From positions 210,516-274,515 of the forward strand of contig CALVUD010000002.1 in assembly GCA_944363505.1 (NCBI GenBank): a stretch of 64,000 nt of DNA, read 5' to 3'. The DNA is from an uncultured Clostridia bacterium. Lineage in GTDB: Bacteria; Bacillota; Clostridia; Christensenellales; DTU072. Made by a program: the position numbers and the translations under genes. Below the pieces are notes generated by a model. It searched no databases. It saw only the letters and a program-made list of their open reading frames with translations, and was not told the origin of the DNA. Positions 19,422 to 43,202 of this stretch are shown piece by piece (position 1 is the first letter of the stretch; every line of letters begins with the position of its first letter).

Positions 19422-19483
19422 CTTTACCTCCTCACGGCAGGAGAGTTGTCGCCGTTAAGGCATGATCTTTGTTCACGATTCGG

Positions 19484-19512
19484 ATAATACCATAGTTTTC
19501 TTAAAAATGCAA
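19484..19512 (-). promoter_or_regulatory. Promoter for cat
   Basis: Minus strand: TTGCAT (19512-19507), 17-nt spacer, TATTAT (19489-19484). Confidence 0.45.
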
Positions 19513-19530
19513 CGACGTTAACACGGCGGA

Positions 19531-19560
19531 CAAAAGAAAGCCCCCGCCGAAGCGGGAGCT
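19531..19560 (-). terminator. Rho-independent terminator after the 515-aa lipoprotein gene
   Basis: Minus strand AGCTCCCGC-TTCG-GCGGGGGCT (one mismatch) followed by TTCTTTTG. Confidence 0.6.
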
Positions 19561-19579
19561 TTCCGAAGTTAAAATTCAA

Positions 19580-21127: not shown

Positions 21128-21202
21128 AACATCACCTTCCTTTATTCAGTATGGTCGTTTTGTAATTTAATAGTAATATGAATAACGCGGTTTTGTCAAT
21201 AC

Positions 21203-21745
21203 TCACAAATTCGGCGGAAGTTTTGCTTTCATTTCTTCTCTTAAATTTATCTTTTCCCCGTCCGCAAAAAATGTCCCGTCGCCCACCGCGTGAAGGATAC
21301 GCCTGTCTTCGACGTCTTCGTTGACGACCACTCTCAAAACTTTCAATACGACGAAACCGTATCGTTCTATATAATCAGACACTCTGCATTCGAGACATGC
21401 CATACATTCGCCTATCAGCGGCGCGTCGACGGTTTTAGCTTTTAACGCGCTCAGATTGAATTTCTTGAATTTATCGGTATCCTCGCCGCTGATCATACCT
21501 ATGCCGACGACGGTTTCCGCAATGCTTGCGGGAGGAATACATACGCAGCACTCCCTTGTCCGCATCAGAGCGTCGAACGAATAATTCCAGCAACCGGTAG
21601 TCAGAACAATGTGCTGATCGAAATCGATAGCCATGGTCCATGATATGGTCATTACGTTTATTTTATCCTCGTTCCGCGTCGTAACCAACACGACGGGTCC
21701 CGGCTCTATAAACGTCAGAGCCTTTTCGACAGCGACTTCTTTCAT
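21203..21745 (-). CDS. Flavin reductase-like (FMN-binding split-barrel) protein
   Basis: PGPVVLVTT....INVMTISW motif typical of the flavin reductase-like domain. 180 aa. Confidence 0.75.
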   Translation of the reverse strand: MKEVAVEKALTFIEPGPVVLVTTRNEDKINVMTISWTMAIDFDQHIVLTTGCWNYSFDALMRTRECCVCIPPASIAETVVGIGMISGEDTDKFKKFNLSALKAKTVDAPLIGECMACLECRVSDYIERYGFVVLKVLRVVVNEDVEDRRILHAVGDGTFFADGEKINLREEMKAKLPPNL

Positions 21746-21844
21746 TTTTTCTCCTTAAGGGTATAGTCTTTATTTAATTCTATCACATACGGAACCTATT
21801 CGAACATTTTTTGAATTTTTAAGTATTTATTCCAAACCGAACAG

Positions 21845-21868
21845 AAAAAAGGCGCATAGAGCGCCTTT
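21845..21868 (-). terminator. Rho-independent terminator after the 78-aa ORF
   Basis: AAAGGCGC-N5-GCGCCTTT followed on the minus strand by TTTTTTCTG. Confidence 0.65.
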
Positions 21869-21917
21869 ATCCTTCTATTATAGTCCATTAAAACACCGCT
21901 TCTAAAAAATGCAATTA

Positions 21918-22154
21918 CTATAAATTAAACGATTCTTTAAGCAAGCTGATCAATTGCTTAGCCATCTCTTTACTGATATGTATGACTTGACTTTGCTTTC
22001 CTTTTTCTATCCGATCAACGGAACCAAATGTTTGAATACGAACAAATTTTTCTTCATTATTCGTACAATCGTTATATTGCGCATCACAACAAGTTATCTT
22101 ACCTTTCATCACGTAGTTTTCTTCTTTTTTTGTGATTTTTTTAATAATCGCCAT
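21918..22154 (-). CDS. Hypothetical 78-aa protein (orphan, AT-rich codons)
   Basis: GAGGT RBS 9 nt before the ATG, own terminator downstream, very AT-rich upstream region. I cannot assign a family. Confidence 0.5.
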   Translation of the reverse strand: MAIIKKITKKEENYVMKGKITCCDAQYNDCTNNEEKFVRIQTFGSVDRIEKGKQSQVIHISKEMAKQLISLLKESFNL

Positions 22155-22318
22155 ATGATGATTTACCTCATAAAAAATAATTATATATATATTATATTAT
22201 AAAACTTATTAATAAAATCATTCCAAATAAAATTAAAGGCTAAAATAATTTTTAGTTATAATAAATGTATAAGATTTGGCAGATAATAAAGCAGTTTACT
22301 AAAATGTAAACGATCACG

Positions 22319-22358
22319 GTCCGAATCATGAAAAAAGGGCGCAAGATACGCGCTTATC
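22319..22358. repeat. Distal copy of the 40 nt that follow tRNA-Leu (direct repeat of 23084-23123)
   Basis: 38/40 identical by manual alignment. The two differences fall in the terminator stem. Confidence 0.85.
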
Positions 22359-22365
22359 TTTACGG

Positions 22366-22384
22366 ACCAAACCGAGGAGAAGGG
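22366..22384. repeat. Inverted copy of the tRNA-Leu 3' end (ACCA) plus the following 15 nt
   Basis: accaaaccgaggagaaggg matches the reverse complement of 23116-23134 at 18/19 positions. Confidence 0.8.
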
Positions 22385-22390
22385 ATATTC

Positions 22391-22556
22391 CGTTGCGCCC
22401 GCCTGAACGGACGGGCGCTTCCGTTTACACCCTGCGGGAGCGTCTTTTCGCCCGTTTCGTCGGGAGCGAAGCTCGGCACGGAACCGTAGCCTTCGCTTCT
22501 ACCCCTAGAACCGAACGAAAATCCCCATCCCTCGGGCGCCGAGTACGCTGAAAGAA
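22391..22556. repeat. 166-bp GC-rich hairpin-dense element, copy A
   Basis: 164/166 identical to 22752-22917. The flanks are unrelated AT-rich DNA. No shared ORF. Confidence 0.9.
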
Positions 22557-22751
22557 TTTAAAACGGATAAATGCACTTTATAATTCGGTTAAGACAAGAA
22601 AGTTTATAATTAAGCAAATAACCGAAGTTTTAAAATTTTGGATTGATTGCATTATATAATTGCATTATCGACGTATTTCTTTTACCGCACTTTTAAACCT
22701 ACTTGGCAGCGAGAAATTGACGTTTTCGCCCGATTTCAAGTGTAGAAGTCC

Positions 22752-22917
22752 CGTTGCGCCCGCCTGAACGGACGGGCGCTTCCCGTTACACCCTGCGGGA
22801 GCGTCTTTTCGCCCGTTTCGTCGGGAGCGAAGCTCGGCACGGAACCGTAGCCTTCGCTTCTACCCCTAGAACCGAACGAAAATCCCCATCCCTCGGGCGC
22901 CGAGTACGCTGAAAGAA
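22752..22917. repeat. 166-bp GC-rich hairpin-dense element, copy B
   Basis: Same as copy A, offset by 361 bp. The only differences are at 22784-22785. Confidence 0.9.
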
Positions 22918-23043
22918 ATTATAGAATAAGCAATTTTTGATAAAGGCGTGTTTTAAATTTCCTTATAACTGTTTTAGTTTAAAAACCGAGCGATACTTAC
23001 GCAGGAAGCGGACGAAAACGGCTTTTCTAAGCGTATTTTCGTC

Positions 23044-23076
23044 GCGCCTGTCCGTTCAGGCAGGCGCAAGATTATC
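23044..23076. repeat. Inverted 5'-terminal fragment (about 33 nt) of the 166-bp element
   Basis: The reverse complement GATAATC--TTGCGCCTGCCTGAACGGACAGGCGC aligns to GATATTCCGTTGCGCCCGCCTGAACGGACGGGCGC of copy A. Confidence 0.8.
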
Positions 23077-23083
23077 GACCGAA

Positions 23084-23123
23084 GTCCGAATCATGAAAAA
23101 AGGGCGCAAGATGCGCCCTTATC
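23084..23123. repeat. Proximal copy of the 40-nt direct repeat (native tRNA-Leu 3' flank)
   Basis: See 22319-22358. Contains the tRNA terminator. Confidence 0.85.
23096..23120 (-). terminator. Rho-independent terminator of tRNA-Leu
   Basis: Minus strand AAGGGCGC-ATCTT-GCGCCCTT followed by TTTTTT. Confidence 0.75.
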
Positions 23124-23130
23124 CTCGGTT

Positions 23131-23213
23131 TGGTGCGGTCGATGGGACTTGAACCCATACGGTCTCCCATACGCCCCTCAAACGTACGCGTCTGCCTATT
23201 CCGCCACGACCGC
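23131..23213 (-). tRNA. tRNA-Leu (anticodon GAG), long variable arm, CCA encoded
   Basis: The minus strand GCGGTCGTGGCGGAATAGGCAGACGCGTACGTTTGAGGGGCGTATGGGAGACCGTATGGGTTCAAGTCCCATCGACCGCACCA folds as a class II cloverleaf. The anticodon loop is TTGAGGG. Confidence 0.9.
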
Positions 23214-23282
23214 ATTAAGCACGGGAACGCAAATTATATTAACATACCCGTTTGCTTTTTGCAACAGTTTTCCCCTATTTTT

Positions 23283-24842
23283 TCAACCGTCGCTCGCGGT
23301 GTGCGCTTTTTTCTTGGCGGCGCGTATATTGTGTAGGCGATGAATCGCTTTCATTACGCTTTTCAACGGAGACGCGTGCGGGTTTTTGCCTTTTTTATCC
23401 TGTTCGAATACTCCGACGTATTCGATATAAGGTTTCAGTCGACACGAATCGATAACGATTTTGATTTCGTCGGTCCTGACGGCGCGGAAAAACGCTATCC
23501 TGTTAAAGCCTATCGTTTTGCCGTAATAAACGGTTTTGAACTTTCCGTTGACCTTTGCCTCTATCCTGAAACTTTCCACGCGCTGTGAAAACGAAACGTT
23601 CTCGATCAGCCTCAGTTTATCAACTTTGCAAGTCTTTGCCAGCTTCAGCGTTATTTCGTAGCTGTCCGCCTCGTCTTTAGGAGTATAATAACCCGTGCTT
23701 TCGAAAGAATTTTTGTCGAAACCGAAACGGAACATGTTTTTTGGTTTGAAACCCTCTTCGTGTACGGGCGCGGTTACTCCGTCCACCGTTACGGGCTTGG
23801 AGAATGCGGCGTTCTTTCTGTCGGCAAAACGCACCAGCCTGTCCACGTCGGCGTCGTTCAGTCTCCCCGTAGCGTCCGGCGGTACGTTCAAAAGAAGCAG
23901 CGAATTCCCGCCTACCGCCGTGTAATAAATGTATAACAGATTATTTACGGAGCGGATACGGTGATCCTGAGACTTATGGTAAAACCAGCCCGGTCTTATG
24001 GAGACGTCCACCTCGGCGGGCGACCATACGAACTCGGAATATTTTTCGAGCATTTCGCGGCTCCCCAGCTCTTCTCCGAACATTTCGACGGAAGGCGCTT
24101 TCATGTTTTCGGATTCCTCGTGTTGGCTCTGTTCAATGATGCTCTGAGTGCCATAATCCATTTCGGGAATAACGCACCACTCGCCGTCTCTGGCAAAACC
24201 GCCTTCGTTGCCGACCCATCTGACGTCGGGACCGCAATTCGAGATAACGGCTTTGGGCTGAAGCTTTCTGATAACTTCGTAGTACCTGTTAAAATCGTAT
24301 TTCTGTACGGGCTTGCCGTCCGAAGCGGCGCCGCAGGCGCCGTCAAGCCATACCGCGAAAATTTCTCCGTAGCCCGTCAGCAGTTCTTTCAGCTGGGCAA
24401 CGTAAAAGTCGTCGTATTCCGCGCTTCCGTAAAGCGGACAATTTCTGTCCCATGGCGATAAATAGATCCCGAACTTTACCCCGTGCTTTTTGCAAGCCGC
24501 CGCGACTTCCTTTACGACGTCGCCCTTGCCGTCCAGGTATGGACTGGATTTTACCGAGTAATCTGTGGTTGCGGTCTGCCACATGCAGAAACCGTCGTGA
24601 TGTTTTGCGGTAAAGATAATTCCTTTCGCTCCCGCAAATTTGAGCACCTTAACCCATTGTTCGGCATCCTGATTCGTGGGATTGAAGATTTCCGGCGAAA
24701 GCGTTCCGTCGCTCCATTCCTTGTTCGCAAACGTATTCAGACCGTAATGAATAAAGGCGTTGAAGTTATCTCGTTGAATACTTCTTTGCACTCTGGAAGG
24801 CACTACCGAGGTATAAAGTTTAAGTCTTTCTACTGACGTCAT
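23283..24842 (-). CDS. Alpha-L-fucosidase (GH29) with C-terminal beta-sandwich domain
   Basis: GH29 boxes FNAFIHYGLNTF, KHHDGFCMW, FAVWLDGA. Confidence 0.85.
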   Translation of the reverse strand: MTSVERLKLYTSVVPSRVQRSIQRDNFNAFIHYGLNTFANKEWSDGTLSPEIFNPTNQDAEQWVKVLKFAGAKGIIFTAKHHDGFCMWQTATTDYSVKSSPYLDGKGDVVKEVAAACKKHGVKFGIYLSPWDRNCPLYGSAEYDDFYVAQLKELLTGYGEIFAVWLDGACGAASDGKPVQKYDFNRYYEVIRKLQPKAVISNCGPDVRWVGNEGGFARDGEWCVIPEMDYGTQSIIEQSQHEESENMKAPSVEMFGEELGSREMLEKYSEFVWSPAEVDVSIRPGWFYHKSQDHRIRSVNNLLYIYYTAVGGNSLLLLNVPPDATGRLNDADVDRLVRFADRKNAAFSKPVTVDGVTAPVHEEGFKPKNMFRFGFDKNSFESTGYYTPKDEADSYEITLKLAKTCKVDKLRLIENVSFSQRVESFRIEAKVNGKFKTVYYGKTIGFNRIAFFRAVRTDEIKIVIDSCRLKPYIEYVGVFEQDKKGKNPHASPLKSVMKAIHRLHNIRAAKKKAHTASDG

Positions 24843-28118: not shown

Positions 28119-28628
28119 TCAGCGGTTTTTGTATTTATCGAGTATAAATTTCAGCTTTTCGAGATTTGCTTCGTCGAAATCCAGCTTTACCGTGGCGGCG
28201 CCCATGGTGTCGAAGCCCTTGTCGTTGCCAAAAAACAATATGGTGGTACCTTCGATCCTGAAGTCGTACAGCCGCGCCCATTCGATGAATCTGTAAGGCA
28301 CCACGACCCCGGAATCGAGTACCGCGCACTTGGTTACGATCATCATCGCGAGTATCGAGGCAAGCATACCGATTATCACCAGCACCGACAGCGTCAGCAG
28401 CCAATCGCCCGGAATCAGCGCCATATAAACAATGTCCCCTATCAGACACAGGGCGAGAATACATAGCGCGAATATCGGCCACTTGGAACGCTTATATAGC
28501 GGTATCAGAACTATCGCGCGTTTATAGCGGCGGTTCAACGCGATCAGCTTTTTCAATACGACCGCACCCCAAGCCACGGATAGCGCGGCAAGCAATACGA
28601 AAAATATGTCTATTATCAGATCTATCAT
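28119..28628 (-). CDS. Hypothetical membrane protein (3-4 TM plus small soluble C-terminal domain)
   Basis: 169-aa ORF, hydrophobic N-terminal half. 4-nt overlap with the upstream PII-like gene. Confidence 0.55.
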   Translation of the reverse strand: MIDLIIDIFFVLLAALSVAWGAVVLKKLIALNRRYKRAIVLIPLYKRSKWPIFALCILALCLIGDIVYMALIPGDWLLTLSVLVIIGMLASILAMMIVTKCAVLDSGVVVPYRFIEWARLYDFRIEGTTILFFGNDKGFDTMGAATVKLDFDEANLEKLKFILDKYKNR

Positions 28629-29041
28629 ACGCGCTCCTTTTCCTCGGAAAGTTTTTTTGCGGCGTCAAAATCTTTTTCGGCATCCTTCGACGCGCCTGTT
28701 TCGGTCGGGGCGCCGCCGTCGCCCGATTCGTTTATTCCGAACGCCACGCCCATTACCGAATCCACGTTCAGCGCAAAACAAAGTCCCGCGCCCAACGTGT
28801 TAAGTCCCGCTTTTTTTATTATGGATTTCATTATGCTTTCGGCGCCGCGCTCCGGAGTCAGGATCAATACCGTTTCCTTTTCGGGGGATACCGCTATGCC
28901 GAACAGTTTTTCGGCTTCGTGCGCGCCCGCGCCGCTGGAATGGATTATCGTTCCGCCCGTAGCTCCCGCTTCGCGCGCCGCGTCCATGACGAGCGTGGAA
29001 AATCCGCTGTTTACGATGGTTATTATCAGTTTGAAATTCAT
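28625..29041 (-). CDS. PII-like (P-II family) small signalling protein
   Basis: Start at MNFKLIITIVNSGF (ATG 29041, GGAGGAG RBS). The LIITIV..G....VMDAAREAGA.GGTI pattern is typical of the PII-like proteins found next to DUF1538 genes. Confidence 0.65.
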   Translation of the reverse strand: MNFKLIITIVNSGFSTLVMDAAREAGATGGTIIHSSGAGAHEAEKLFGIAVSPEKETVLILTPERGAESIMKSIIKKAGLNTLGAGLCFALNVDSVMGVAFGINESGDGGAPTETGASKDAEKDFDAAKKLSEEKERV

Positions 29042-29385
29042 TTCGTCTCCTCCTCGGCGCATTCCCCCGCCAGAATCCTCAGCGTGGCGGGTCCCGCCAC
29101 CGCTTTTACGGGTACGGTAAAAGCCACACCGGCGCCGCGTTTTACTCCGAATTCGAATTTGTCTTTCAGACATCTTTCGACGCCTTCCATATATCTTTCC
29201 TCTATAGTGGCTGTTATGACGCTTTTTGAGCTTTCGCCCGTACCTAATATATCGCCGAGCGCCGTCGGCGCCGTACCCGTTCCGGGTATAACGTTCAATG
29301 CGTTCGCGCCGCACTCTATCAGCGCTTCCGTAACCTTTCGCGTCTTAATTTTGTCGACAATTACGAATAAATACTTGAGTCGCAT
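29038..29385 (-). CDS. PII-like small protein (second, divergent copy)
   Basis: 115 aa, YLFVIVDK.....VTEALIE.GA pattern. 4-nt overlap downstream and a 1-nt gap upstream. Confidence 0.6.
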   Translation of the reverse strand: MRLKYLFVIVDKIKTRKVTEALIECGANALNVIPGTGTAPTALGDILGTGESSKSVITATIEERYMEGVERCLKDKFEFGVKRGAGVAFTVPVKAVAGPATLRILAGECAEEETK

Positions 29386-29386
29386 T

Positions 29387-30907
29387 TCAGTCCTCCAGTA
29401 TTATTATCTCGCCTTCGCGCTCGATAAGCGCACGGTATTTCGCTTCGCGCGCGCTCTTTGCGGCGATATGCTTCTTGATCTTAAACGTGAATCCCATGAC
29501 CTGAACGGCAAGCAGCGGCGTCATGGCTACGAATGCCACGGTACCGAAAGCGTCCGTTATTATATTGCCTCCTACGGCTTCCGACGCTCCCATTGCAAGC
29601 GGCAACAAAAACGCCGCGGTCATCGGTCCCGACGCCACGCCGCCCGAGTCGAAAGCTATCGCCGTAAATATCTTGGGTACGAAGAACGACAGTCCCAAAG
29701 CGATTGCGTATACGGGCGCAAGCATCCACCATATCGATATTCCCGTTACCACCCTTATCATGCTCATCGCCACGGCGAAAGCCATCGAAACGGACAGAAC
29801 CGTCAGCATGCTTTTGCGGCTTACGGCACCGCCCGTAACGGATTCGATCTGTTTGTTCAGGACGTGGACGGCGGGTTCCGCCAAGACCAGTACGGAACCG
29901 ATCAGAGCGCCCACGGGGATCAGTAGCCATTTCAGTTCGCCGCCGAACAATCCGCCGATATACGTTCCCGCCGGCATAAACCCTACGTTTGCGCCCATCA
30001 AAAACAACGTCAGTCCGATATAGGTATATATCGCGCCTATGCCTATGCGGAGCAATCTCTTTACCGGGAATTTTATCAGGGCAAACTGGAAAATTATAAA
30101 GAACGCATATATCGGGAGTAACGCTATTCCGACCTCTTTAAGGTACACGGGCGTCTGTTCGGCAAAATGCGCGAAGACCTCGCCTATCGAGGAATACGTA
30201 CTTATTTGCTCGACGCCCGCTTCCGCATCCGCGTTGAACGCCAGTCCCAATATCAGGACTGCGATTATCGGACCGATAGAGCAAATTCCCACCATACCGA
30301 ACGAATCTTCCTGCGACTTGCTGCCTCCCATAACCGTTGAAACGCCCGCACCGAGCGCCAGAATAAACGGAACGGTTATCGGACCGGTGGTAACGCCGCC
30401 CGAGTCGAACGCGAGAGGAACGTAATCCGCGTCCGAAAACGCCGCAAGCAGGAATACCGCGCCGTAGCACGCTATTAAAAAAGCGTTAAGCCTGATCTTA
30501 AGCAACAGCCTGAGTACCGACGCCAGCATAAAAATACCCACTCCCGCCGCAACGCTCCATATCAAAACAGGGTTCGGAATCGAGCTGATTTGCGTGGCGA
30601 GCACAGTGAGATCGGGTTCTGCGACCGTAATTATGACGCCGACGACCAGACACACGCCCAGAATCAGCGGAATTTTCTTTGTGGCGGTTACCTTGGCGCC
30701 GATGTGTTCGCCTATCGGTTCGAGCGAGATCGTACTGCCGAGAGAGTATAACGCTTCGCCCGCGATTAGACAGATGAACCCTATTAAGAATGCCGCAAGA
30801 TTCAATGCGGGCATGGTGCCCATCGCAAAGTTCAATACGATCACCAGCACGGTGATCGGCAAAACCGCAATCGACGCCTCCAAGAGTTTACGAGCAAAAG
30901 TTTTCAT
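29387..30907 (-). CDS. DUF1538-type polytopic membrane protein (putative permease, internally duplicated)
   Basis: 506 aa, more than 10 TM helices. Both halves carry the box FDSGGV(T/A)(T/S)GP(I/M)T. Confidence 0.7.
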   Translation of the reverse strand: MKTFARKLLEASIAVLPITVLVIVLNFAMGTMPALNLAAFLIGFICLIAGEALYSLGSTISLEPIGEHIGAKVTATKKIPLILGVCLVVGVIITVAEPDLTVLATQISSIPNPVLIWSVAAGVGIFMLASVLRLLLKIRLNAFLIACYGAVFLLAAFSDADYVPLAFDSGGVTTGPITVPFILALGAGVSTVMGGSKSQEDSFGMVGICSIGPIIAVLILGLAFNADAEAGVEQISTYSSIGEVFAHFAEQTPVYLKEVGIALLPIYAFFIIFQFALIKFPVKRLLRIGIGAIYTYIGLTLFLMGANVGFMPAGTYIGGLFGGELKWLLIPVGALIGSVLVLAEPAVHVLNKQIESVTGGAVSRKSMLTVLSVSMAFAVAMSMIRVVTGISIWWMLAPVYAIALGLSFFVPKIFTAIAFDSGGVASGPMTAAFLLPLAMGASEAVGGNIITDAFGTVAFVAMTPLLAVQVMGFTFKIKKHIAAKSAREAKYRALIEREGEIIILED

Positions 30908-30962: not shown

Positions 30963-33900
30963 TTATTCAGAATCCGCCGAACCGAAATATTCTGCAACGG
31001 AATCGAATATGTCTTCGGTCAGCGATCTTTCCCCCGCAATATACTTCGCCTTTTCGGGCAAGGCAAAAAATCCCAACACCCTGCCGTCCGGAGAAGACAG
31101 CGCCGCTACCGCAAAGTCGGAAGCGTCGGGATTGAACGGATACGCCGAAGTCGGCATACCTACGGGATCGACGAACTGCGCGGCGACCTGTCCCGAAGAA
31201 GTCAACTCTTTGAATATCTCTGGCTGTATTCTGAGACGCATGTCTTTTCCCGCGGCTGCCGCAAAGTACGAATAACCCAGACCGGTTTTGGTCAGCATAG
31301 GCGAAAACCGGTTGGCTATCCTGATCCTCGGGATCTTTGCGGAAGGAGCGTGGTCGGGAGCGGCTTCCAGCCTGAGTCCCGCATCGTGGGCGTGTTCTGT
31401 ACTGCCTTTCGACAACAAGCCTATATGCGCAAGCGCGCGACTGCCTTCACCCGTGGCAAGGATCAGTCCGTCGTTACGGTATATCAGTTCGTTCATCGCG
31501 TCGCTTACCACCGGCTTCATCAAGAGTTTATAAAACTTACCGCCGTCCGCATAGTCGCCGTAGGCGCTTTTCCCGACCAGCGCGAGCATGTCCGAAGAAG
31601 CTATTTTCTCGCGGACCGTTCTCAACAATTGCTGATCCTCTTCCGTATATTTACCGACATATACCGATTCTATTTTGAAATTTCTTCTTCCCGCCGATTC
31701 CGCGACTGCACCCTCCGAGGCATAATCGCAATGCACTATTGTCAGTATCGGCATACGCACCTTGCCCGAACGCAACGGAGACCCCTTTTGCGACACGGGG
31801 GCGACGGGATAACGCTGGTCCGGGCGATTCTCGAAAGGATATCTGCTGACCAGCCTGTCCAGTTCGGAATGGGTTATGTTGAAAGCGGTACTTCTGATCC
31901 TGCCGGTATCGTCCACCACGCCTATGTATTCGGGATCGAAAGCGGAAAACTCCTCCGCGTCCTCGACCGCAATCAGCATTTCCGAACGGTTGATCCCGCT
32001 TTCCGGCGGTTTGGAAGAAAACGAAAATCCCAGCCTTTCTCCCGACGTGCCTTCCACCACGGTTTTTGCCACACCGTTTTCTATCAGGCGCGCCGCAATC
32101 AAATTGCCTTTGGTGACGTTAATGCTTATCTGAGCAGCCAGTTTTAACACAAACTTAAAGTCAGGGATACCGTACTCGTCTCTCGGGATAACTATTTTAT
32201 AAATTTTATTGCCGTTGCGGAACAACCCGTTCTTAAGCGAATCCGTCGTCGTAATCCCCGTTGCCGCCATGAACAAAGACGGTATGCCCCCGTGCGTTTC
32301 CCCTTTCCCGACAGAGTAGCCGAGCGAACACAGCGAAAGCGCGTTTTCCAAATAGAACACGCCCAGCGCCAGTTCCAACAACATGCCTTTGGAACGGTCG
32401 GTATCGGGCACGAGATAGGTCGGATTCAACACTATATCGTAGATCGACACTCCCGACACGACGAGTTTCAGAACGGCGTTCAGCGCCGTATTGACGGCTT
32501 TCGTAAACAGGTCTCCTCCCGTAGCAGGCGAGGAAAGCGCCGCGGTATTGACGGCGTTGCCGTATCCGCTGAAATCGGGCTTCACCGCCGCGACGAAATT
32601 GGGCGTGGTCTGAGCGGAACCGGACATCTGCCCGGCAACGGATCTGCCGCCGCCGAGAGCGTTCAACACAATGCCCTCCGAAACGTTCATCACGGAGTTT
32701 TTTATATCCTCCGCACTTTCTGAAGCACGGTCGAGGAAAGGCTCGGGCACCGATTCCAGAACGTATCGCGAAAACGAATGTCTGCGGCGCAATAATACGT
32801 TCATGCTCAGATTAATCAGTTCGGTACCCTTGGAAATCAGCCTGAATTTGTGTCTGGCGTTAAACTTTCCGAGCAGCCTAAGCTCGAAAGAGTATTTTTC
32901 GGCTGCCGCTTTCACGGGTGCGAGTTTGCCGCGCTTGATCACTATAACTATGCGGTTCAGACTCTTTTCGAGGATCAGTTCCTCGCCGGGCATCCCGAAT
33001 TCGGAAGCCTCCCCCAACTCTATATCGAAACCCGAACCCAGCGCTATAATGCCGTTCAACAAGCCGTTGTCGCAGTACACGCCGCGTTGGATCAGATCGC
33101 CCACGTTGATCTCCCGCAAAAACGCGTTAAGCTTTAAAATGCCGTCGCGCTCCGTGTCGCGCGTTTCGAAATACGCGATAATGTCGCCCGGCTCGGGATT
33201 GCCCGAACCTATCTGCGGAAACGTGGAAAAACCCAGTACCGTGGCTTTCGTCAGCGGTTTTTCGACGCCTACGCAGGACGAACCGAAATCGTATGCGGCG
33301 GCGTCCAACGAATCCGCGTACCTGGCAAACGCAACAGTTCTTTCGGGGGTATTCCCACCGGGTTCTTCGTGAATGAAAAGTTTGGGAATGGCTCCGGCCA
33401 CGCTGCATTCCATTGTCGCGCGTCTTTCCGCACGCAAAAAGTCGTCGTCCCACTTCGTCATCAGATAAGAAAAATACCTGACGCGACGGTTTTTGTCGTA
33501 TATCGCGCACTCTTCGGATACCCTCCCCGCATTCATAAGTACGGAATCGCGGTTATCTGCCGCCACGGCTTTCACGTTCACTATCTGAATGTCGGCAAGC
33601 GTCCTGTAAGCGCCGGGGGTGAATCTGCGATGCAGTTCCTCGTATTTCGTGAGCGCCTTACGGATATGCGGGTTTTCCGAAATAACGTTGATCTCCCCTA
33701 TTTCGCGCGTGAAATGCGAACGCGGCAAGCTCCAGTACGCGTCCAGAATTTTCAACGCAAGCACGGTGGGCACGTTTTTACGCAAAGCTTTGCCGAGTTT
33801 AAAAAGATCTTCCACGCTCATGCTTAAATCCAGTCCGCGCTTCAATGCCGTCAGCGTTTTGGCGTCGAAAGAGGAAAATCCGTTGATTTTTCTGTGTAAT

Positions 33901-33977
33901 TGAAAATCCGAAAAGTCCGACGACACGGACTTTTCTTTCAGTGCGTTTTTTATATTCTTTCCCGACAATGCGTTCAT
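30963..33977 (-). CDS. FGAM synthase (PurL-type) paralog, probably non-catalytic
   Basis: 1004 aa, colinear with single-chain FGAM synthases (PurM-like repeats plus a C-terminal glutaminase-like part). The catalytic boxes I can place are all substituted (see findings). Confidence 0.7.
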   Translation of the reverse strand: MNALSGKNIKNALKEKSVSSDFSDFQLHRKINGFSSFDAKTLTALKRGLDLSMSVEDLFKLGKALRKNVPTVLALKILDAYWSLPRSHFTREIGEINVISENPHIRKALTKYEELHRRFTPGAYRTLADIQIVNVKAVAADNRDSVLMNAGRVSEECAIYDKNRRVRYFSYLMTKWDDDFLRAERRATMECSVAGAIPKLFIHEEPGGNTPERTVAFARYADSLDAAAYDFGSSCVGVEKPLTKATVLGFSTFPQIGSGNPEPGDIIAYFETRDTERDGILKLNAFLREINVGDLIQRGVYCDNGLLNGIIALGSGFDIELGEASEFGMPGEELILEKSLNRIVIVIKRGKLAPVKAAAEKYSFELRLLGKFNARHKFRLISKGTELINLSMNVLLRRRHSFSRYVLESVPEPFLDRASESAEDIKNSVMNVSEGIVLNALGGGRSVAGQMSGSAQTTPNFVAAVKPDFSGYGNAVNTAALSSPATGGDLFTKAVNTALNAVLKLVVSGVSIYDIVLNPTYLVPDTDRSKGMLLELALGVFYLENALSLCSLGYSVGKGETHGGIPSLFMAATGITTTDSLKNGLFRNGNKIYKIVIPRDEYGIPDFKFVLKLAAQISINVTKGNLIAARLIENGVAKTVVEGTSGERLGFSFSSKPPESGINRSEMLIAVEDAEEFSAFDPEYIGVVDDTGRIRSTAFNITHSELDRLVSRYPFENRPDQRYPVAPVSQKGSPLRSGKVRMPILTIVHCDYASEGAVAESAGRRNFKIESVYVGKYTEEDQQLLRTVREKIASSDMLALVGKSAYGDYADGGKFYKLLMKPVVSDAMNELIYRNDGLILATGEGSRALAHIGLLSKGSTEHAHDAGLRLEAAPDHAPSAKIPRIRIANRFSPMLTKTGLGYSYFAAAAGKDMRLRIQPEIFKELTSSGQVAAQFVDPVGMPTSAYPFNPDASDFAVAALSSPDGRVLGFFALPEKAKYIAGERSLTEDIFDSVAEYFGSADSE

Positions 33978-33980
33978 GGG

Positions 33981-36900
33981 CTATACCGCCGGATAAATGT
34001 TATCGCCGAACGCTTCGACATAAACGGCGTCGTTTTTGTATGCTTCCAAAGTTTCCGCGGCGACGTACAGCGCGGCATCCAAAGACACGCCCTCGAATGC
34101 GTTCTCGCCCGCAGCGACTTTGTCCTGTTTCAGAATTCGTATTTCCTCGACGTTAAACGCGTCGCGGAAAGCGTCGGCGGAAATGTATGCCAAAGAGGAA
34201 TCGGCGCCGATCGTCAACACTTCGATGCGGCTCCCGCCGAAAGCGCCGGCGGCGACGGCGGTGAAAGAGGCATCGAGAACCGCCTGCGAAGCGGTACCCG
34301 AATATTTTATCAGCGTGGTTCCGAGATAAACGTATTCGCCGTCGTTTTCGAGGGCGCCGAGCACGTCGTCGAAAGCACCCGTACCCACTTCCTTCAGCGC
34401 CGAGCCTTGCGCCACCGAAACGGATTCAAGCGACAAACAACTCCTGAAAGCGTACGCGCCTATCGTTTCCAAGGACGCGGGAAGCGCGACCGTCGTCAAC
34501 GAATCAGCTCCGTCAAAAGCGTACGCGCCTATTTCAGTCAAACCGTTCCCTTCAAAAGCTATTGCAGTCAGATATCTGTTGTTGGCGAACGCTCCGCCCG
34601 CAATGCGGCTAACGGTCGCAGGAACGGTATAGGACGTCGCCTCGTTGGTAGGCAGATACAGATACAATACGCTTCCGTCCGCCGAAGTCAGCACCCCGTT
34701 TGCGAAATTAAACGAGACACCGTTCAAATTGACGTTGTTCAGCGCGAACAGTCCGCGGAACGCATTGTCTTCTACGGTCGTCAATCCCGAAGGCAGCGTG
34801 ATCTCGGTTATGAACAAAATCTTGGAGTAGTTTTCGAACGCGCCTTCGCCAAGCGCGACGACGGGCAATCCCATATGACTATCGGGAATATATACCGACA
34901 AAGTGGAATATTCTTCCGCCGAGGAAGCGAATCCGACGACCTTGTACCCTATCGTCGTGCCGGATTCGTCGGTCACCGCCTCGAATTCAAGACCCTCTGT
35001 GCCTAAAAGCATGTCGGTCCACTTCGCATAGAAATTCACGGCGCCCTTGATAGCATATGTCGCGGGATCCACGGGCGTAACGTAGCCGGGATCGAGATAC
35101 CATCCGTCGAATACGAAATCGCCTGTCGCGCCGTCGCCATATTGCGGAGTGTCGGGCACGGGTACGTAAGACACGTAATCGTTGTATTCCACGGGCATAC
35201 CGATCTGTAACACAAACGATATCTCGTATCCTTCCGAAGCGGTGCCGTTATATGCGACGTTATAGAAATTCGCGTCGAACGTCTGCGGCACGGCGCTCGC
35301 ATAAATTGCCTTGTCGAAACGCACGTCGGGATCGTAGGTATGCGATTCTGTCACGCTGAACGAGCCTTGCGACTGGAAAATCATCGTTTCGGTAGGCATG
35401 TCGGGTGTCCAGTACGTCGGGTTCGGCGGTTCCGAACCGGCGGGCACTCCGGATAAGGCTTTATACACCGAATTGCGGTACACGACCCGGTCGCCGGCAG
35501 AATAAACGGACGAGGAATCGTATGCGGGTACCGCGTCCAATCCCGTTACGTCGTAATAATACCAGTAAGTAACGTTATAGCCGGGAATGTTGACCTGAGG
35601 TACCTGCACTGTGGCGACGCCGTTTTCGTCGGGGCTGACTTCGATCTCCATTTCAAACGCCTCATACGGCGCGTTGGCGGGAGATCTGAAAACTATCGTG
35701 TAAGGTTTGCGCGTAGGTTCGGCATAGAAAGAAATATTGCCCTCGACCCTGCGCGGAAATTCGACTTTGGAACTGGGTTGTTTGCCGGCTGACGAATACC
35801 AGGTAACCTCATATATGTCGAACGGATACCCGTTCCCTATGATTCCGTTCTCGACATCCACCCCTGGTCTGACTTCGGTTCCGTAGGAAACGGAGTACGA
35901 ACCCAGCTGTATCAGAGTGTCGCTGTTGGCGGGAGACAGGTAATACGAAACCGTATAATCGTTCGGGAAATACCTCGCCACCACGTTGTAATCCGTGGTC
36001 ATCGCGACCGTAGTAAGATCCTTTTGCACCAAAACGTTGTCTATTCTTATGTACCAGATTCCCGTATGCCCGGTTTTTTCCGGCACGGCGGGAGGCGTGG
36101 AAATGTAGCGGTTATAGTACGCCGTGCGCGTAATCTGCGCGCCCGTCGTGTCGGTGGCGGGAACGGTCTGCTCCTCGTCCAACCAGAAATACATCGAATA
36201 CAGTCGGTCCGTATACTGCGCTATAAAAGTCCTGTCAGCCGTTGCCGAACCGTACAGCGGTTCCCTGCCCGTGGAGGCGTCCAACCATATGCCTGTAGCT
36301 CCGGGTATCTCCGGAATCTCGGGAACGGGTTCGACGTCCGCTCGGAGCGTGGTTCCGTAACGGACTTCGAATACGTAACAGTAACCGTTGACGTATTGCC
36401 CGGAATACGAAATCTGTTTTTCGACGATCGGTACGCCGAACTGTGTCGCGCCCTCCTCCGCCCACGGACTGTCGGTTCTGGTAACCACATAGGTCATTTC
36501 GAGCATTTTGATCGTATAGTTTATGCTGACCGTTAGGTTCGACGTAACCTCGAAAGTAGCTTCCGGATCCGTCAGCACGACGGTTTCCGTCACTTTGTCG
36601 GAATCGTCCCTGACCTCGACGGTATAATTGACGAAATCGTATGCCGCTTCCTGTGCCGGCGCGGGGAAGGTGATGACGGAGCCGTATTCCACGTCGGTAC
36701 GCGTTTCGACCAGTCCCCAGGTGGCTCCGTCGCGGTACGCGGTAAACCTTACCGTAAACGTGCGCATATCCGACCAGCGCGCATACACAACGGTATCACG
36801 CGTCAGAGTTCTGCCCGCGGTAAACACACTGCCCGAAAAGTCGGACGCCGAATACCAACCCACGAAAACGTAACCTTCGCGCTCGGGTATTTCCACCGTA

Positions 36901-37397
36901 TCGACGTAGCCCGCGGCATAGCCCACTTCCCATATGACGGCGCCGTCGGCGTCGGTATAGGAGGCGTTGCTTTTGTCGTCGGGAAAGCTGGCGCCGACGC
37001 CCGCGTTATATGTAACGTAATACGTCGGGGTCTCCGCGACCGTATATGTTTTTATCGTCAGATAGAGAGACGCTCCCTGATAAATGACTCTGATCGTGGC
37101 CGTACCGGCGGATTCGGTAAGTTTCAGCTCCTCTGGGGCGATCATGCTTTCGGTCACCGCGACCTCTTCCAGCAGATTGTCCCCGGAATCGTACAGATAG
37201 AATCTGAACGCCGACCAGTCCACTTTGCCCGCTTCGAAAACATACGCTCCCGCCGCCTCGTCGTAATATGCTTTGGCGGAATCGGGATTGAGTTCTATCG
37301 AATAAGCGGCTTTTTCGGAATCGGTACAACCTATCGCGAGAGCCGCCAGCGCGGTCAATAAAACTATTAAAATTACGATATAAATTTTCTTACGCAT
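33981..37397 (-). CDS. Large surface lipoprotein with Listeria-Bacteroides-type repeats and C-terminal BspA-like leucine-rich repeats
   Basis: Lipobox LAIGC. GY.F.GWY...ARW / FDGWY...AKW repeat signatures. About the last 330 aa are LRR (..AF....L..I.LP..L..I...AF..C..L). Confidence 0.8.
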   Translation of the reverse strand: MRKKIYIVILIVLLTALAALAIGCTDSEKAAYSIELNPDSAKAYYDEAAGAYVFEAGKVDWSAFRFYLYDSGDNLLEEVAVTESMIAPEELKLTESAGTATIRVIYQGASLYLTIKTYTVAETPTYYVTYNAGVGASFPDDKSNASYTDADGAVIWEVGYAAGYVDTVEIPEREGYVFVGWYSASDFSGSVFTAGRTLTRDTVVYARWSDMRTFTVRFTAYRDGATWGLVETRTDVEYGSVITFPAPAQEAAYDFVNYTVEVRDDSDKVTETVVLTDPEATFEVTSNLTVSINYTIKMLEMTYVVTRTDSPWAEEGATQFGVPIVEKQISYSGQYVNGYCYVFEVRYGTTLRADVEPVPEIPEIPGATGIWLDASTGREPLYGSATADRTFIAQYTDRLYSMYFWLDEEQTVPATDTTGAQITRTAYYNRYISTPPAVPEKTGHTGIWYIRIDNVLVQKDLTTVAMTTDYNVVARYFPNDYTVSYYLSPANSDTLIQLGSYSVSYGTEVRPGVDVENGIIGNGYPFDIYEVTWYSSAGKQPSSKVEFPRRVEGNISFYAEPTRKPYTIVFRSPANAPYEAFEMEIEVSPDENGVATVQVPQVNIPGYNVTYWYYYDVTGLDAVPAYDSSSVYSAGDRVVYRNSVYKALSGVPAGSEPPNPTYWTPDMPTETMIFQSQGSFSVTESHTYDPDVRFDKAIYASAVPQTFDANFYNVAYNGTASEGYEISFVLQIGMPVEYNDYVSYVPVPDTPQYGDGATGDFVFDGWYLDPGYVTPVDPATYAIKGAVNFYAKWTDMLLGTEGLEFEAVTDESGTTIGYKVVGFASSAEEYSTLSVYIPDSHMGLPVVALGEGAFENYSKILFITEITLPSGLTTVEDNAFRGLFALNNVNLNGVSFNFANGVLTSADGSVLYLYLPTNEATSYTVPATVSRIAGGAFANNRYLTAIAFEGNGLTEIGAYAFDGADSLTTVALPASLETIGAYAFRSCLSLESVSVAQGSALKEVGTGAFDDVLGALENDGEYVYLGTTLIKYSGTASQAVLDASFTAVAAGAFGGSRIEVLTIGADSSLAYISADAFRDAFNVEEIRILKQDKVAAGENAFEGVSLDAALYVAAETLEAYKNDAVYVEAFGDNIYPAV

Positions 37398-37423: not shown

Positions 37424-37452
37424 AATATAACATTTTCGGGGTCGACTGTCAA
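37424..37452 (-). promoter_or_regulatory. Promoter for the LRR-lipoprotein operon
   Basis: Minus strand: TTGACA (37452-37447), 17-nt spacer, TATATT (37429-37424). Confidence 0.45.
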
Positions 37453-40517: not shown

Positions 40518-43136
40518 TTATTTATTCTTGATCGCTGCGTGCGCGGCGGCAAGAATGGCGATCGGTACGCGGAAGGGAGAGCAGGAAACGTAGTTGAGTC
40601 CCACGTTGTGGCAGAATTCGATCGTCGAAGGATCGCCGCCGTGCTCGCCGCAGATTCCCAGTTTGATGTTGGGTCTGGTGGCTTTGCCCTTGGCGACCGC
40701 TATCTTGACGAGTTCGCCCACGCCTTCCTGGTCGAGCCTTGCGAACGGGTCGGATTCGAATATTTTCTTCTTGTAGTAATCGCCGAGGAACTTGCCCGCG
40801 TCGTCACGGCTGAAGCCGAACGTCATCTGGGTCAGGTCGTTGGTGCCGAACGAGAAGAATTCGGCTTCCTTAGCTATCTTGTCCGCGGTGATGGCTGCGC
40901 GCGGGATCTCGATCATGGTGCCGACCATATATTCGACTTTGACGCCTTTTTCCGCCATAACGGCCTCGGCGGTGTCTACGACGACCTTTTTGACGTAAGC
41001 GAGTTCTTTCACGTCGCCGACCAGAGGTATCATGATCTCCGCCTTGACTTTTCCGCCCTGCTTGTTGACCTCTATAGCCGCTTCGATAACGGCGCGGGTC
41101 TGCATTTCGGCGATCTCGGGATAAGTTATCGCCAGACGGCAGCCGCGGTGTCCGAGCATCGGGTTCATCTCGTGCAGGCTGTGTACGGTCTCGTTAAGCT
41201 GTTCGTAAGAGATTCCCATATCCTTTGCAAGAGCGCGGATGTCTTCCTCCTTGGAGGGCAGGAACTCGTGGAGCGGCGGATCGAGGAAGCGGATGGTAAC
41301 GGGATAGCCCTTCAGCGCTTTATAAATGCCGATAAAGTCTTCTCTCTGCATCGGAAGGATCTTCGCGAGAGCGGCTTTTCTCTGTTCGAGGTTGGAAGCG
41401 ACTATCATCTCGCGAACGGCGGGTATACGCTCTTCCGCAAAGAACATGTGCTCGGTTCTGCAAAGACCTACGCCCTGAGCGCCGAACTCGTACGCGACGG
41501 AAGCGTCGTGCGGATTATCGGCATTGGCGCGGACCTGAAGTTTTTTGTATTTGTTCGCCCAGCCCATGATGGTAGCGAAGTTGCCCGAAGTGTCGGCGTC
41601 GACCATCGGCAGACTGCCTTCGTAAACCTTTCCGGTGGAGCCGTCGAGAGAAATAACATCCTGTTGGGTATATTTTTTGCCCGCGATAACGCAGATACCG
41701 TTGGCCTCGTCGATCTCGACGGCGCCGCATCCGCATACGCAGCAAGCGCCCATACCTCTGGCGACGACCGCCGCGTGGGAGGTAAGTCCGCCTCTGGCGG
41801 TAAGGATGCCTTCGGAAACCTGCATGCCTTCGATATCCTCTGGGGAAGTTTCGATACGTACCAGAACGACCTTTTCGCCCTTCTTTACGCGCTCTTTCGC
41901 CTCGTCGGCGGTAAAGCAAATCTTACCGCAAGCAGCGCCGGGAGAAGCGGGCAGACCTTCGGCGACAGCCTTGGTCTTTTTCAGAACGGCTTTGTCGAAA
42001 GTGGGATGCAGCAGGTCGTCAAGCTGTTTCGGCTCGACTTTCAGGAGAGCTTCTTCTTCGGTGCAAAGTCCTTCTTTCACGAGATCGACGGCAATATTGA
42101 TGGCAGCGAGAGCGGTACGTTTGCCGCTGCGGGTCTGGAGCATGAACAGTTTGCCGCGCTCGATCGTGAACTCCATATCCTGCATGTCGTGGAAGTAATT
42201 TTCCAGACGGTTGCAGATGTCGAGGAACTGGTCGTAAACGGCGGGGTTGATCTCTTTAAGTTTGTCTATCGACGAGGGAGTACGGATACCCGCGACGACG
42301 TCCTCGCCCTGGGCGTTCATCAGGAATTCGCCGTAAAGTTTCTTTTCGCCGTTGGTGGGGTTTCTGGTAAACGCGACGCCCGTGCCGGAAGTCTCGCCCA
42401 TGTTACCGAACACCATCGACTGGACGTTGACCGCGGTGCCCCACGAAGAGGGTATGTCGTTCATTCTGCGGTAAACGATGGCGCGTTCGTTGTTCCAGCT
42501 GCGGAACACCGCTTTGATGGCGCCGATGAGCTGTTCTTTGGGATCCTGCGGGAATTCCGCGCCGACGTTCTCGAAATAGTATTTCTTGAACATCGCGATC
42601 AGTTCCTGCAAATCCTCGGCGGTCAGTTCGGTATCGAGCTTAACGCCCTTTCTTTCCTTGACTTCGTCGATGAATCTTTCGAAATTGGCTTTTTCGACTC
42701 CGGTAACGACGTCGGAATACATCTGAATGAATCTGCGGTAGCAGTCGTATGCGAATCTGGGATTTTGGGTCAGTTCGGCAAGTCCTTTGACGCTGACGTC
42801 GTTAAGTCCGAGGTTCAGAATGGTGTCCATCATGCCGGGCATCGAAGCTCTCGCGCCGCTTCTGACGGAAACGAGGAACGGATCCGCGGCGTCGCCGAAT
42901 TTCTTTCCGGACTCCTCTTCGAGGACTTTCAGCTGCGCAAAGATCTCGTCGATGATCTCGGGAGCAATTTTCTCGCCGTCGTCGTAGTATTTTGTGCAAG
43001 CCTCGGTCGTGATGGTGAATCCGGGAGGCACGGGCATACCGAGTTTGGTCATTTCGGCAAGGTTCGCGCCCTTACCGCCGAATTTGGCTTTGTCTTTGCC
43101 GTCGGCTTCGCGGAACAAGTAAACGTACTTTGTCAT
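40518..43136 (-). CDS. ppdK: Pyruvate, phosphate dikinase
   Basis: 872 aa. N-terminal GGKGANLAEM box, phospho-His box TARGGLTSHAAVVARGMG, C-terminal PEP-utilizer domain. Confidence 0.95.
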   Translation of the reverse strand: MTKYVYLFREADGKDKAKFGGKGANLAEMTKLGMPVPPGFTITTEACTKYYDDGEKIAPEIIDEIFAQLKVLEEESGKKFGDAADPFLVSVRSGARASMPGMMDTILNLGLNDVSVKGLAELTQNPRFAYDCYRRFIQMYSDVVTGVEKANFERFIDEVKERKGVKLDTELTAEDLQELIAMFKKYYFENVGAEFPQDPKEQLIGAIKAVFRSWNNERAIVYRRMNDIPSSWGTAVNVQSMVFGNMGETSGTGVAFTRNPTNGEKKLYGEFLMNAQGEDVVAGIRTPSSIDKLKEINPAVYDQFLDICNRLENYFHDMQDMEFTIERGKLFMLQTRSGKRTALAAINIAVDLVKEGLCTEEEALLKVEPKQLDDLLHPTFDKAVLKKTKAVAEGLPASPGAACGKICFTADEAKERVKKGEKVVLVRIETSPEDIEGMQVSEGILTARGGLTSHAAVVARGMGACCVCGCGAVEIDEANGICVIAGKKYTQQDVISLDGSTGKVYEGSLPMVDADTSGNFATIMGWANKYKKLQVRANADNPHDASVAYEFGAQGVGLCRTEHMFFAEERIPAVREMIVASNLEQRKAALAKILPMQREDFIGIYKALKGYPVTIRFLDPPLHEFLPSKEEDIRALAKDMGISYEQLNETVHSLHEMNPMLGHRGCRLAITYPEIAEMQTRAVIEAAIEVNKQGGKVKAEIMIPLVGDVKELAYVKKVVVDTAEAVMAEKGVKVEYMVGTMIEIPRAAITADKIAKEAEFFSFGTNDLTQMTFGFSRDDAGKFLGDYYKKKIFESDPFARLDQEGVGELVKIAVAKGKATRPNIKLGICGEHGGDPSTIEFCHNVGLNYVSCSPFRVPIAILAAAHAAIKNK

Positions 43137-43202
43137 AAATACTCTCCTGTTTTTTATTGTTTCGTTTAAAGTGATTTGCTTTGGTTAACTGTAGCGTAAT
43201 TT

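Follow-up and report, generated by a model that had tools for sequence, protein, structure and literature searches.

To our knowledge, PurL-derived pseudoenzymes were previously known only from gammaherpesviruses. These viral relatives of the purine enzyme formylglycinamidine ribonucleotide (FGAM) synthase, termed vFGARAT or vGAT (ORF75, BNRF1), adopt the PurL fold without a catalytic triad and work by binding, not as enzymes (PMC7605207). Here we analyze a chromosomal PurL-like protein of 1004 amino acids (aa), encoded in a 64,000-nucleotide stretch of contig CALVUD010000002.1 from an uncultured Clostridia bacterium (hereafter, the window). The initial annotation, made from the sequence of this stretch, had interpreted the protein as a PurL-fold pseudoenzyme recruited to a non-purine role, invoking the herpesvirus proteins as precedent and noting no described bacterial equivalent. 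The precedent proves apt at the level of the fold, and full-text literature searches likewise returned no description of a bacterial PurL pseudoenzyme, nor of a gene pair joining PurL to a leucine-rich repeat (LRR) protein. Two elements are new here and absent from that annotation: a wide, unnamed monophyletic family and an invariant lipoprotein partner. We favor the reading that the PurL-like protein is a PurL-fold pseudoenzyme acting as the non-catalytic partner of an LRR lipoprotein, a reading to which we give an even chance of being correct.

As initially annotated, the PurL-like gene is an intact open reading frame (ORF) of 1004 codons. It has an ATG start and is closed by a stop, and we place it on the minus strand, which that annotation had not specified. 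All the peptide strings quoted for it are present in the translation: LDAYWSLPRSHFTRE (aa 78-92; 33702-33746), MTKWDDDF (aa 173-180; 33438-33461), GKSAYGDYADGG (aa 802-813), ATGEGSRAL (aa 841-849; 31431-31457), SPDGRVLG (aa 962-969) and LPEK (aa 973-976; 31050-31061). Alignments A1-A5 and both structure models were built on positions 30963-33974, with the start codon dropped, and their residue numbers are the true ones minus 1. The best model for the protein is TIGR01857, the NCBIfam model of the clostridial single-chain FGAM synthase (E 1.1e-40; 139.1 bits against a cutoff of 1057). The sole Pfam domain seen is GATase_5 (PF13507; aa 786-977, E 1.4e-26), which at 93.6 bits passes its gathering threshold of 27 and denotes domain homology only, the triad being incomplete. 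The homology to FGAM synthase greatly exceeds what chance would produce, and the closest sequence relative is the single-chain clostridial-type enzyme, at ~20-25% identity. From the linker onward, both share the same fold and domain order (TMq 0.69-0.71); B2 and, in the C-terminal part, the SPDGRVLG region can still be recognized. The PurL-like protein is, however, ~240 aa shorter, lacks the PurS-like N domain, the catalytic residues and the Gly-rich loops, and is encoded outside a pur context, always preceded by an LRR lipoprotein gene. The colinearity with PurL initially described thus holds for the whole fold but not for the N-terminal region, which consists of the linker only, and the PurM-like repeats are seen at the fold level but go undetected by Pfam AIRS and AIRS_C. 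No second purL was detected in the 64-kb window by tblastn with three canonical PurLs.

Alignment of the PurL-like protein with canonical clostridial-type PurLs of 1230-1300 aa revealed the loss of the catalytic sites domain by domain. The PurS-like N domain (~135-170 aa) is missing, with the YWS motif located at aa 81, as compared to aa 217 in the canonical representative P0007. The canonical YWSDHCRHTTF box reads YWSLPRSHF, in a region (aa ~25-141) that also contains the family motifs DFSDFxLHRKINGF and NPH. The His and Glu of ETHNHP have no counterpart in either alignment placement: MAFFT aligns this box to a gap, and an ungapped count from the conserved NAC/NAG anchor leads to MTKWDD, as in the initial annotation. 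The loops FGGAATCxGGAIRDP and GGxTGRDGxGGATGSS are also without counterpart, and each segment containing them is shorter by a net 27 aa. Further along the protein, NDFGAGG is changed to CDNG, SESQER to LEKSLNR, FDSTIG to LNALGG and GGKDSMSG to GYSVGKG; the Asp residues of FDST and GKDS correspond to those of the auxiliary nucleotide site of Salmonella PurL (StPurL). In the glutaminase-like domain, GICNGFQ is replaced by ATGEGSR, with Gly843 at the position of the nucleophile Cys, and HSER by LPEK, with Leu973 in place of the His and Glu975 retained. The same C-terminal register was obtained independently from a phmmer alignment to Salmonella PurL. Every box initially described as degenerate is borne out by these alignments, which add the further changed motifs.

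Scoring of the synthetase motifs DHCRH, ETHNHP, GGAATxxGG..RD, GRDGxGGATxSS, NDFGAGG and SESQER found none of eight diagnostic residues in the window protein, and at most two of the eight in any of the 24 members of its family, described below. The class I glutaminase triad Cys-His-Glu is reduced to its Glu, and 92% of the family have Gly in place of the nucleophile Cys. Across the 24 members, Cys and His do not reach 80% conservation in any column, which rules out a cryptic triad shifted to an offset position. The profile comparison proposed by the initial annotation yields matches to TIGR01857 and GATase_5 with the catalytic His and Cys gone and none offset.

The predicted structure accompanying this loss is that of a complete PurL, in line with the structural check that had also been proposed. 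An AlphaFold2 model inferred from 53 sequences, with a mean pLDDT of 88.1 and a pTM of 0.89, contains the linker, the A1-B1-A2-B2 PurM-like pseudo-dimer and the C-terminal GATase domain. It supersedes an earlier, poor model from 11 sequences (pLDDT 64.9), and the pLDDT of the A1 remnant (aa ~145-255) rises from below 50 with 11 sequences to 69-94 with 53. In Foldseek searches against the PDB, the model matched Salmonella PurL (StPurL, 1T3T; E 5.6e-51, TMq 0.70) and human PFAS (9N9W; TMq 0.69) over the full length, as well as 6JT9 (TMq 0.71), with E values spanning 1e-48 to 1e-51, followed by small PurLs and other PurM-superfamily proteins. The dN/dS ratio of orthologs is 0.03-0.23, including pairs with a dS of only 0.006-0.05. 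The gene is under purifying selection and, as the initial annotation had maintained, is not decaying. Because the whole fold has been kept and everything needed for the chemistry has been lost, we read the protein as a pseudoenzyme, predicted to be incapable of FGAM formation or glutamine hydrolysis. This reading, already advanced from the motifs, survives alignment.

The resemblance to the viral proteins is thus one of fold and of loss. The model matches viral models with E values of 1e-29 to 1e-43 and a TMq of ~0.5-0.6, and the triad is absent in both, but a PurL fold without triad is a shared property and not evidence of common descent. The window protein scores 20.4 bits on the viral model NCBIfam TIGR01739, against a cutoff of 716. 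The viral proteins, at ~1300 aa, are not shortened in the same manner, and they are virion tegument components that target host nuclear bodies and RIG-I, whereas the PurL-like protein is chromosomally encoded next to a lipoprotein gene. It is neither virus-encoded nor a tegument protein, lying in a housekeeping context (FtsK, tRNA synthetases, pyruvate phosphate dikinase (PPDK), RecO, Era). No relatives were found in IMG/VR viral contigs, and a viral or prophage origin was rejected on both counts. Because the protein is closest to the bacterial TIGR01857 model and reaches only 20 bits on TIGR01739, its origin appears to be bacterial and independent of the vFGARATs.

A word-indexed search recovered six relatives of the PurL-like protein, followed by canonical PurLs at 25% identity. 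In a profile search of 1.84 billion representatives, with the family counted at 50% clustering, we identified 24 representatives of 900-1014 aa, reaching down to ~20% identity and scoring from 977 to ~230 bits. Diagnostic residues were classed in the 134 profile hits of at least 850 aa. Canonical PurLs account for 57 of these 134 representatives, and 46 present a dead synthetase and no nucleophile Cys. The remainder comprise 18 with an intact synthetase lacking the Cys, nine with a partly degenerate synthetase and four combining a dead synthetase with an intact triad. On a neighbor-joining tree, the members whose partner gene was verified share a last common ancestor that defines a clade of exactly 24 proteins (the window protein, P0002-6, P0020-24, P0026-29, P0031-35, P0037-39 and P0043), and the other 110 PurL-type proteins fall outside it. 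We propose as family features, shared by these proteins, a length of 900-1014 aa, the absence of the PurS-like domain, the loss of synthetase and triad residues and membership in this single clade.

Pfam detects GATase_5 in 24/24 members and AIRS_C in 2/24, and none of the 24 presents a match to FGAR-AT_N or to the linker. Family-specific conserved residues (true numbering) are found in B2 (F586, K608, L613, N625, S652, F653, D673, Y684, D689, G692) and in the GATase-like domain (D751, R789, D826, N829, E830, G843), and most members carry G-E-G where canonical enzymes have C-N-G. Many contigs carry close relatives of the window protein, with 23 and 198 member sequences in two 90%-identity clusters, for which no name is available in any public source. 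The named source organisms are uncultured Clostridia metagenome-assembled genomes (MAGs) and Candidatus Stercoripulliclostridium merdigallinarum. Scans of JGI metagenomes for loci beyond those known returned only full-length PurL-type genes, which served as negative controls.

Other degenerate PurL paralogs (P0042, P0041, P0050-P0074) also derive from the TIGR01857 type and lack the nucleophile Cys, several with a dead synthetase half, but they lie outside the 24-member clade and some have a fully intact synthetase (18 representatives). In these 18 (P0041, P0053, P0054, P0086, P0090, P0099, P0102, P0107, P0108, P0116, P0123, P0125, P0128, P0130, P0131, P0138, P0144 and P0155), all 1205-1443 aa long except for one of 1035 aa, G, D, N, S, A or T stands in place of the Cys; these proteins may be ammonia-dependent or rely on a separate PurQ. 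The reverse pattern, a dead synthetase with an intact triad, is seen in P0076, P0080, P0104 and P0152. P0042 (L025:8001-11084), a 1027-aa paralog without PurS-like domain or Cys, retains YWSDGCRH and GHSER, looks less degenerate than the window protein, has no LRR partner and is named 'PurQ' at NCBI.

The gene immediately upstream of the PurL-like gene encodes a 1138-aa putative surface lipoprotein. Besides a Sec/lipobox signal (MRKKIYIVILIVLLTALAALAIGC; …LAALAIGC) and Flg_new (Listeria-Bacteroides) repeats, it has a stretch weakly resembling CBM5/12 and, at its C-terminus, a BspA-type LRR_5 region whose structure matches are to PcpA, TpLRR and other cell-surface LRR structures. The partner thus shares with BspA/PcpA-type surface proteins the LRR_5 and Flg_new domains, the lipoprotein signal and the structure matches, and the full-text searches found no report of such proteins linked with a PurL-like gene. 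Directly upstream, on the same strand, a Flg_new/LRR_5 gene was found in the window and in 12 of the 12 family representatives looked up (P0002, P0003, P0004, P0005 at locus L017, P0006, P0020, P0021, P0024, P0029, P0031, P0035 and P0043), with partners of ~1000-1190 aa confirmed by Pfam and a lipobox wherever the N-terminus is complete. These representatives range from 75% down to 22% identity to the window protein, and the GC content of their loci from 29 to 53%. The lipoprotein signal peptides carry a Sec-type lipobox, with twin arginine only in L013. No LRR-lipoprotein partner was found upstream on the same strand at any of 14 PurL-type loci outside the clade (P0042 and 13 full-length ones).

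The lipoprotein stop and the PurL-like start overlap or lie 0-7 nt apart, with a 24-nt gap in one case, and these tight junctions suggest coupled translation. The pair is embedded in at least five distinct flanking contexts: PPDK and DUF1538/P-II/GH2/GH29 (GH, glycoside hydrolase family) in the window clade and, at other loci, SMC-FtsY and GDPD, SMC and a putative SNF-type symporter, nucleoside-catabolism genes and GH2/GH29, or biotin ligase and Hpt/ADH. Since partner-verified members sit in every major branch, the pairing dates to the root of the clade, and the two genes have been inherited together since then while the surrounding genes changed. The partner evolves faster, with 35% identity between the two nearest clades as compared to 50% for the PurL-like protein, and is itself under purifying selection (dN/dS 0.16-0.20). 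Because it is encoded directly behind the lipoprotein gene in all relatives looked up, the PurL-like protein probably has a non-enzymatic job tied to the surface lipoprotein. The putative non-purine role initially proposed is likewise supported by gene context, with no purine genes nearby and a constant coupling to the LRR-lipoprotein gene.

Together, these results are consistent with descent from a clostridial-type single-chain FGAM synthase that has kept its fold (linker, A1-B1-A2-B2 and GATase-like domain). The PurL-like gene would be transcribed with the lipoprotein gene and probably translated by coupling straight after it, yielding a protein-binding scaffold produced in step with the lipoprotein and dedicated to it. 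We infer that the scaffold most likely acts in the cytoplasm, where it may hold, target or quality-control the ~1100-aa precursor ahead of Sec export. A cytoplasmic mode is favored because the PurL-like protein carries no signal peptide or membrane segment, nor any known secretion motif, and has a cysteine content (1.21%) typical of cytoplasmic proteins, as compared to 1.44% in canonical PurLs and 0.18-1.15% in the lipoprotein partners. Alternatively, in some lineages the protein may connect to the envelope through a DUF5673 membrane protein encoded nearby. The locations of these genes, of the subdomains of the PurL-like protein and of a candidate promoter are listed in Table 1.

Table 1. Coordinates in the window of the PurL-like gene, its subdomains, its partner gene and associated features.
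Feature	Position	Strand	Description
Promoter-like site TTGACA, 17 nt, TG-TATATT	37424..37452	minus	~25 nt upstream of lipoprotein gene
Partner gene, 1138-aa putative surface lipoprotein	33981..37397	minus	Lipobox signal, Flg_new, LRR_5
PurL-like gene, 1004-aa FGAM-synthase paralog, predicted catalytically dead	30963..33977	minus	Start codon 3 nt past partner stop (TAG CCC ATG)
aa ~25-141, linker-like and helical part of A1	33555..33905	minus	Degenerate DHCRH box YWSLPRSH, aa 81-88
aa ~145-255, A1 subdomain remnant	33213..33545	minus	Folded; without ETHNHP and Gly-rich FGGAATCxGGxxRD loop
aa ~262-410, B1 (AIRS_C-like) subdomain	32748..33194	minus	Without GGxTGRDGxGGATGSS loop
aa ~440-560, A2 subdomain	32298..32660	minus	FDST and GKDS Asp changed to Asn and Gly
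aa ~565-712, B2 subdomain	31842..32285	minus	Holds most family-specific conserved residues
aa ~742-1000, GATase_5-like domain	30978..31754	minus	Triad down to Gly843 / Leu973 / Glu975
169-aa membrane protein	28119..28628	minus	~4 hydrophobic segments, C-terminal DUF5673/PH-like domain

The strong promoter-like site, predicted by consensus match only, presents 11 of 12 consensus positions and an extended -10 TG, and is likely to mark the start of an operon. The only strong terminator-like hairpin is located at 23120-23100, past the GH29 gene, and a single transcript may span the LRR lipoprotein, PurL-like, DUF1538, 115-aa ORF, P-II, 169-aa ORF, 252-aa ORF, GH2 and GH29 genes. Between the PurL-like gene and the 169-aa gene (28625-30907, minus strand) lie a double-DUF1538 fusion (a 506-aa UmpA/UmpB-like membrane protein), the 115-aa ORF (29038-29385) and a P-II-like protein; a 229-aa GTG-initiated ORF at 28625-29314 is probably an over-extended call of a P-II gene encoding ~125-138 aa. 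This arrangement is seen in the window clade only, and a functional link of the PurL-like protein to the DUF1538/P-II genes was rejected since they are absent in other lineages. At L019:4624-15127, whose PurL-like protein is 30% identical to that of the window, the LRR lipoprotein, PurL-like, GH2 (mannosidase-like) and GH29 fucosidase genes follow one another in this order, without intervening genes. These genes also bound the window operon, a hint of a link to glycan use in that branch of the family. As a functional link, the glycosidases were rejected, being found in the window clade and L019 only.

The 169-aa DUF5673 protein is 48% identical to the product of a 168-aa gene directly downstream of the PurL-like gene in L021, where the PurL-like proteins themselves are only ~25% identical to each other, and 27% identical to that of the homologous DUF5673 gene following P0042 (L025:11166-11771). 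The flanks fetched for six other lineages do not contain it, and we consider it a possible, non-universal third component.

Several observations weigh against a non-catalytic partnership with the lipoprotein. The topologies of the two proteins do not match, since the lipoprotein is exported and lipid-anchored outside and the PurL-like protein carries no export signal, and neighboring genes may be co-regulated without their products forming a complex. We infer the physical interaction between both proteins, the cytoplasmic location and the effect of the interaction. A link to the DUF5673 membrane protein is seen in just three lineages, the monophyly of the family rests on a neighbor-joining tree without support values, and all family members come from uncultured MAGs or metagenomes. 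Lastly, ~20 invariant or near-invariant polar residues in the B2 and GATase-like domains could form a new catalytic or ligand site and not an interface.

These residues underlie a possible, though clearly less probable, explanation: a neofunctionalized enzyme or ligand binder with a new cytoplasmic site of polar residues in the B2 and GATase-like domains, whose substrate would be captured or imported via the lipoprotein pathway, for instance in the use of host glycans or glycopeptides. The conserved K608, N625, S652, D673, Y684, D689, D751, R789, D826, N829 and E830, the G-E-G motif that replaces C-N-G in most members, the GH2 (mannosidase-like) and GH29 fucosidase genes into which the operon continues at L019 and throughout the window clade, and the weak CBM5/12 matches in the lipoprotein all fit such a site. 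However, it would include no conserved nucleophile-type residue (Cys, His), the glutamate of G-E-G is lost in P0003-P0006, the GH2/GH29 link is absent in most lineages and the tight junctions in every lineage examined would fit subunits better than pathway steps.

An unlikely alternative is that the PurL-like protein leaves the cell non-classically or through lysis, to be captured outside by the lipoprotein's LRR domain as part of a surface coat or adhesin complex in which it would be structural like the tegument vFGARATs. LRRs are protein-binding modules, those of the partner resemble the surface adhesins PcpA and TpLRR, coupled translation suggests ~1:1 production and the herpesvirus homologs are tegument proteins (PMC7605207). 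Against export stand the missing secretion signals and the cytoplasm-like cysteine content, and no LRR-PurL fusion was found among the top 150 profile-search matches. Export of a fusion by read-through or frameshifting was rejected on the grounds that the frame relation of the two ORFs is not constant: the window, L015 and L005 have them in frame, and other loci out of frame, with overlaps of 1, 4 or 11 nt or spacers of 1, 2 or 7 nt. Tat 'hitch-hiker' export was rejected because the partner signals are Sec-type lipoboxes, save for the twin arginine in L013. We regard as similarly improbable that the LRR lipoprotein and the PurL-like protein, with or without the DUF5673 protein, constitute a trans-envelope receptor-like unit, in which the LRR/Flg_new region would serve as extracellular ligand-binding module and the PurL-fold pseudoenzyme as cytoplasmic output or scaffold.

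A role as regulator or sensor of the purine pathway is more doubtful still. The PurL-like protein would bind formylglycinamide ribonucleotide (FGAR), a nucleotide or glutamine, or heterodimerize with a genuine PurL, thereby adjusting purine synthesis or steering PurL toward deamidation of a protein target. The vGAT pseudoenzymes do hijack PFAS (PMC7605207), and the GATase-like C-terminus, with SPDGRVLG and NP.GS retained, is the region best conserved with canonical PurL. Yet neither the 64-kb window nor any of the fetched flanks contains purine genes, the loops for ATP/FGAR are deleted, conservation of the FDST/GKDS Asp is lost, and the constant LRR-lipoprotein pairing would be left unexplained. 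Finally, a decaying purL pseudogene or functionless annotation artefact, suggested by the loss of all catalytic motifs and a score far below the family cutoff, is refuted by the dN/dS values and confident predicted fold, by an ORF intact over 1004 codons in dozens of metagenomes and by the persistence of the family to ~20% identity with conserved length and synteny. Anti-phage defense was also rejected, with no PADLOC match for the PurL-like protein, its partner or two small membrane proteins.

The remainder of the window is ordinary chromosome, with FtsK, tRNA synthetases, HflX, PPDK, RecO, YbeY-Era and sugar-acid genes. YbeY and Era are usually encoded by two separate genes. A 459-aa ORF at 44055-45434 (minus strand) combines a YbeY endoribonuclease, an Era-type GTPase and a KH domain, and the same fusion is called in L001. 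At 13293-16043 (minus strand), a 916-aa ORF joins a PfkB-kinase-like region to an iron-containing alcohol dehydrogenase and adjoins separate PfkB kinase and 2-keto-3-deoxy-6-phosphogluconate (KDPG) aldolase genes. A full-length chloramphenicol acetyltransferase gene at 18771-19421 (minus strand) may be horizontally acquired; GC content across 18000-24000 is 0.45-0.48, as compared to 0.50-0.55 in the flanks. An 876-aa ORF at 40539-43169 (plus strand), antisense to the 872-aa PPDK gene (40518-43136, minus strand), is almost certainly a shadow ORF and not a gene.

Proteins of the PurL-like family match GATase_5 and PurL models, and the related paralog P0042 already bears the name of a purine enzyme, which entails a risk of misannotation: because of these matches, metabolic reconstructions of MAGs could wrongly credit step 4 of purine synthesis. 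Should the receptor-like arrangement be true, it would represent a hitherto unknown bacterial architecture for surface sensing or adhesion, derived from a retired purine enzyme. The PurL-like family appears to be an independent bacterial case of a PurL-derived pseudoenzyme, old, selectively maintained and tied to one class of surface protein. As such, it offers a handle on the fate of large metabolic enzymes retired into pseudoenzymes, and on the production or use of BspA-type LRR surface proteins, which abound in gut Firmicutes.

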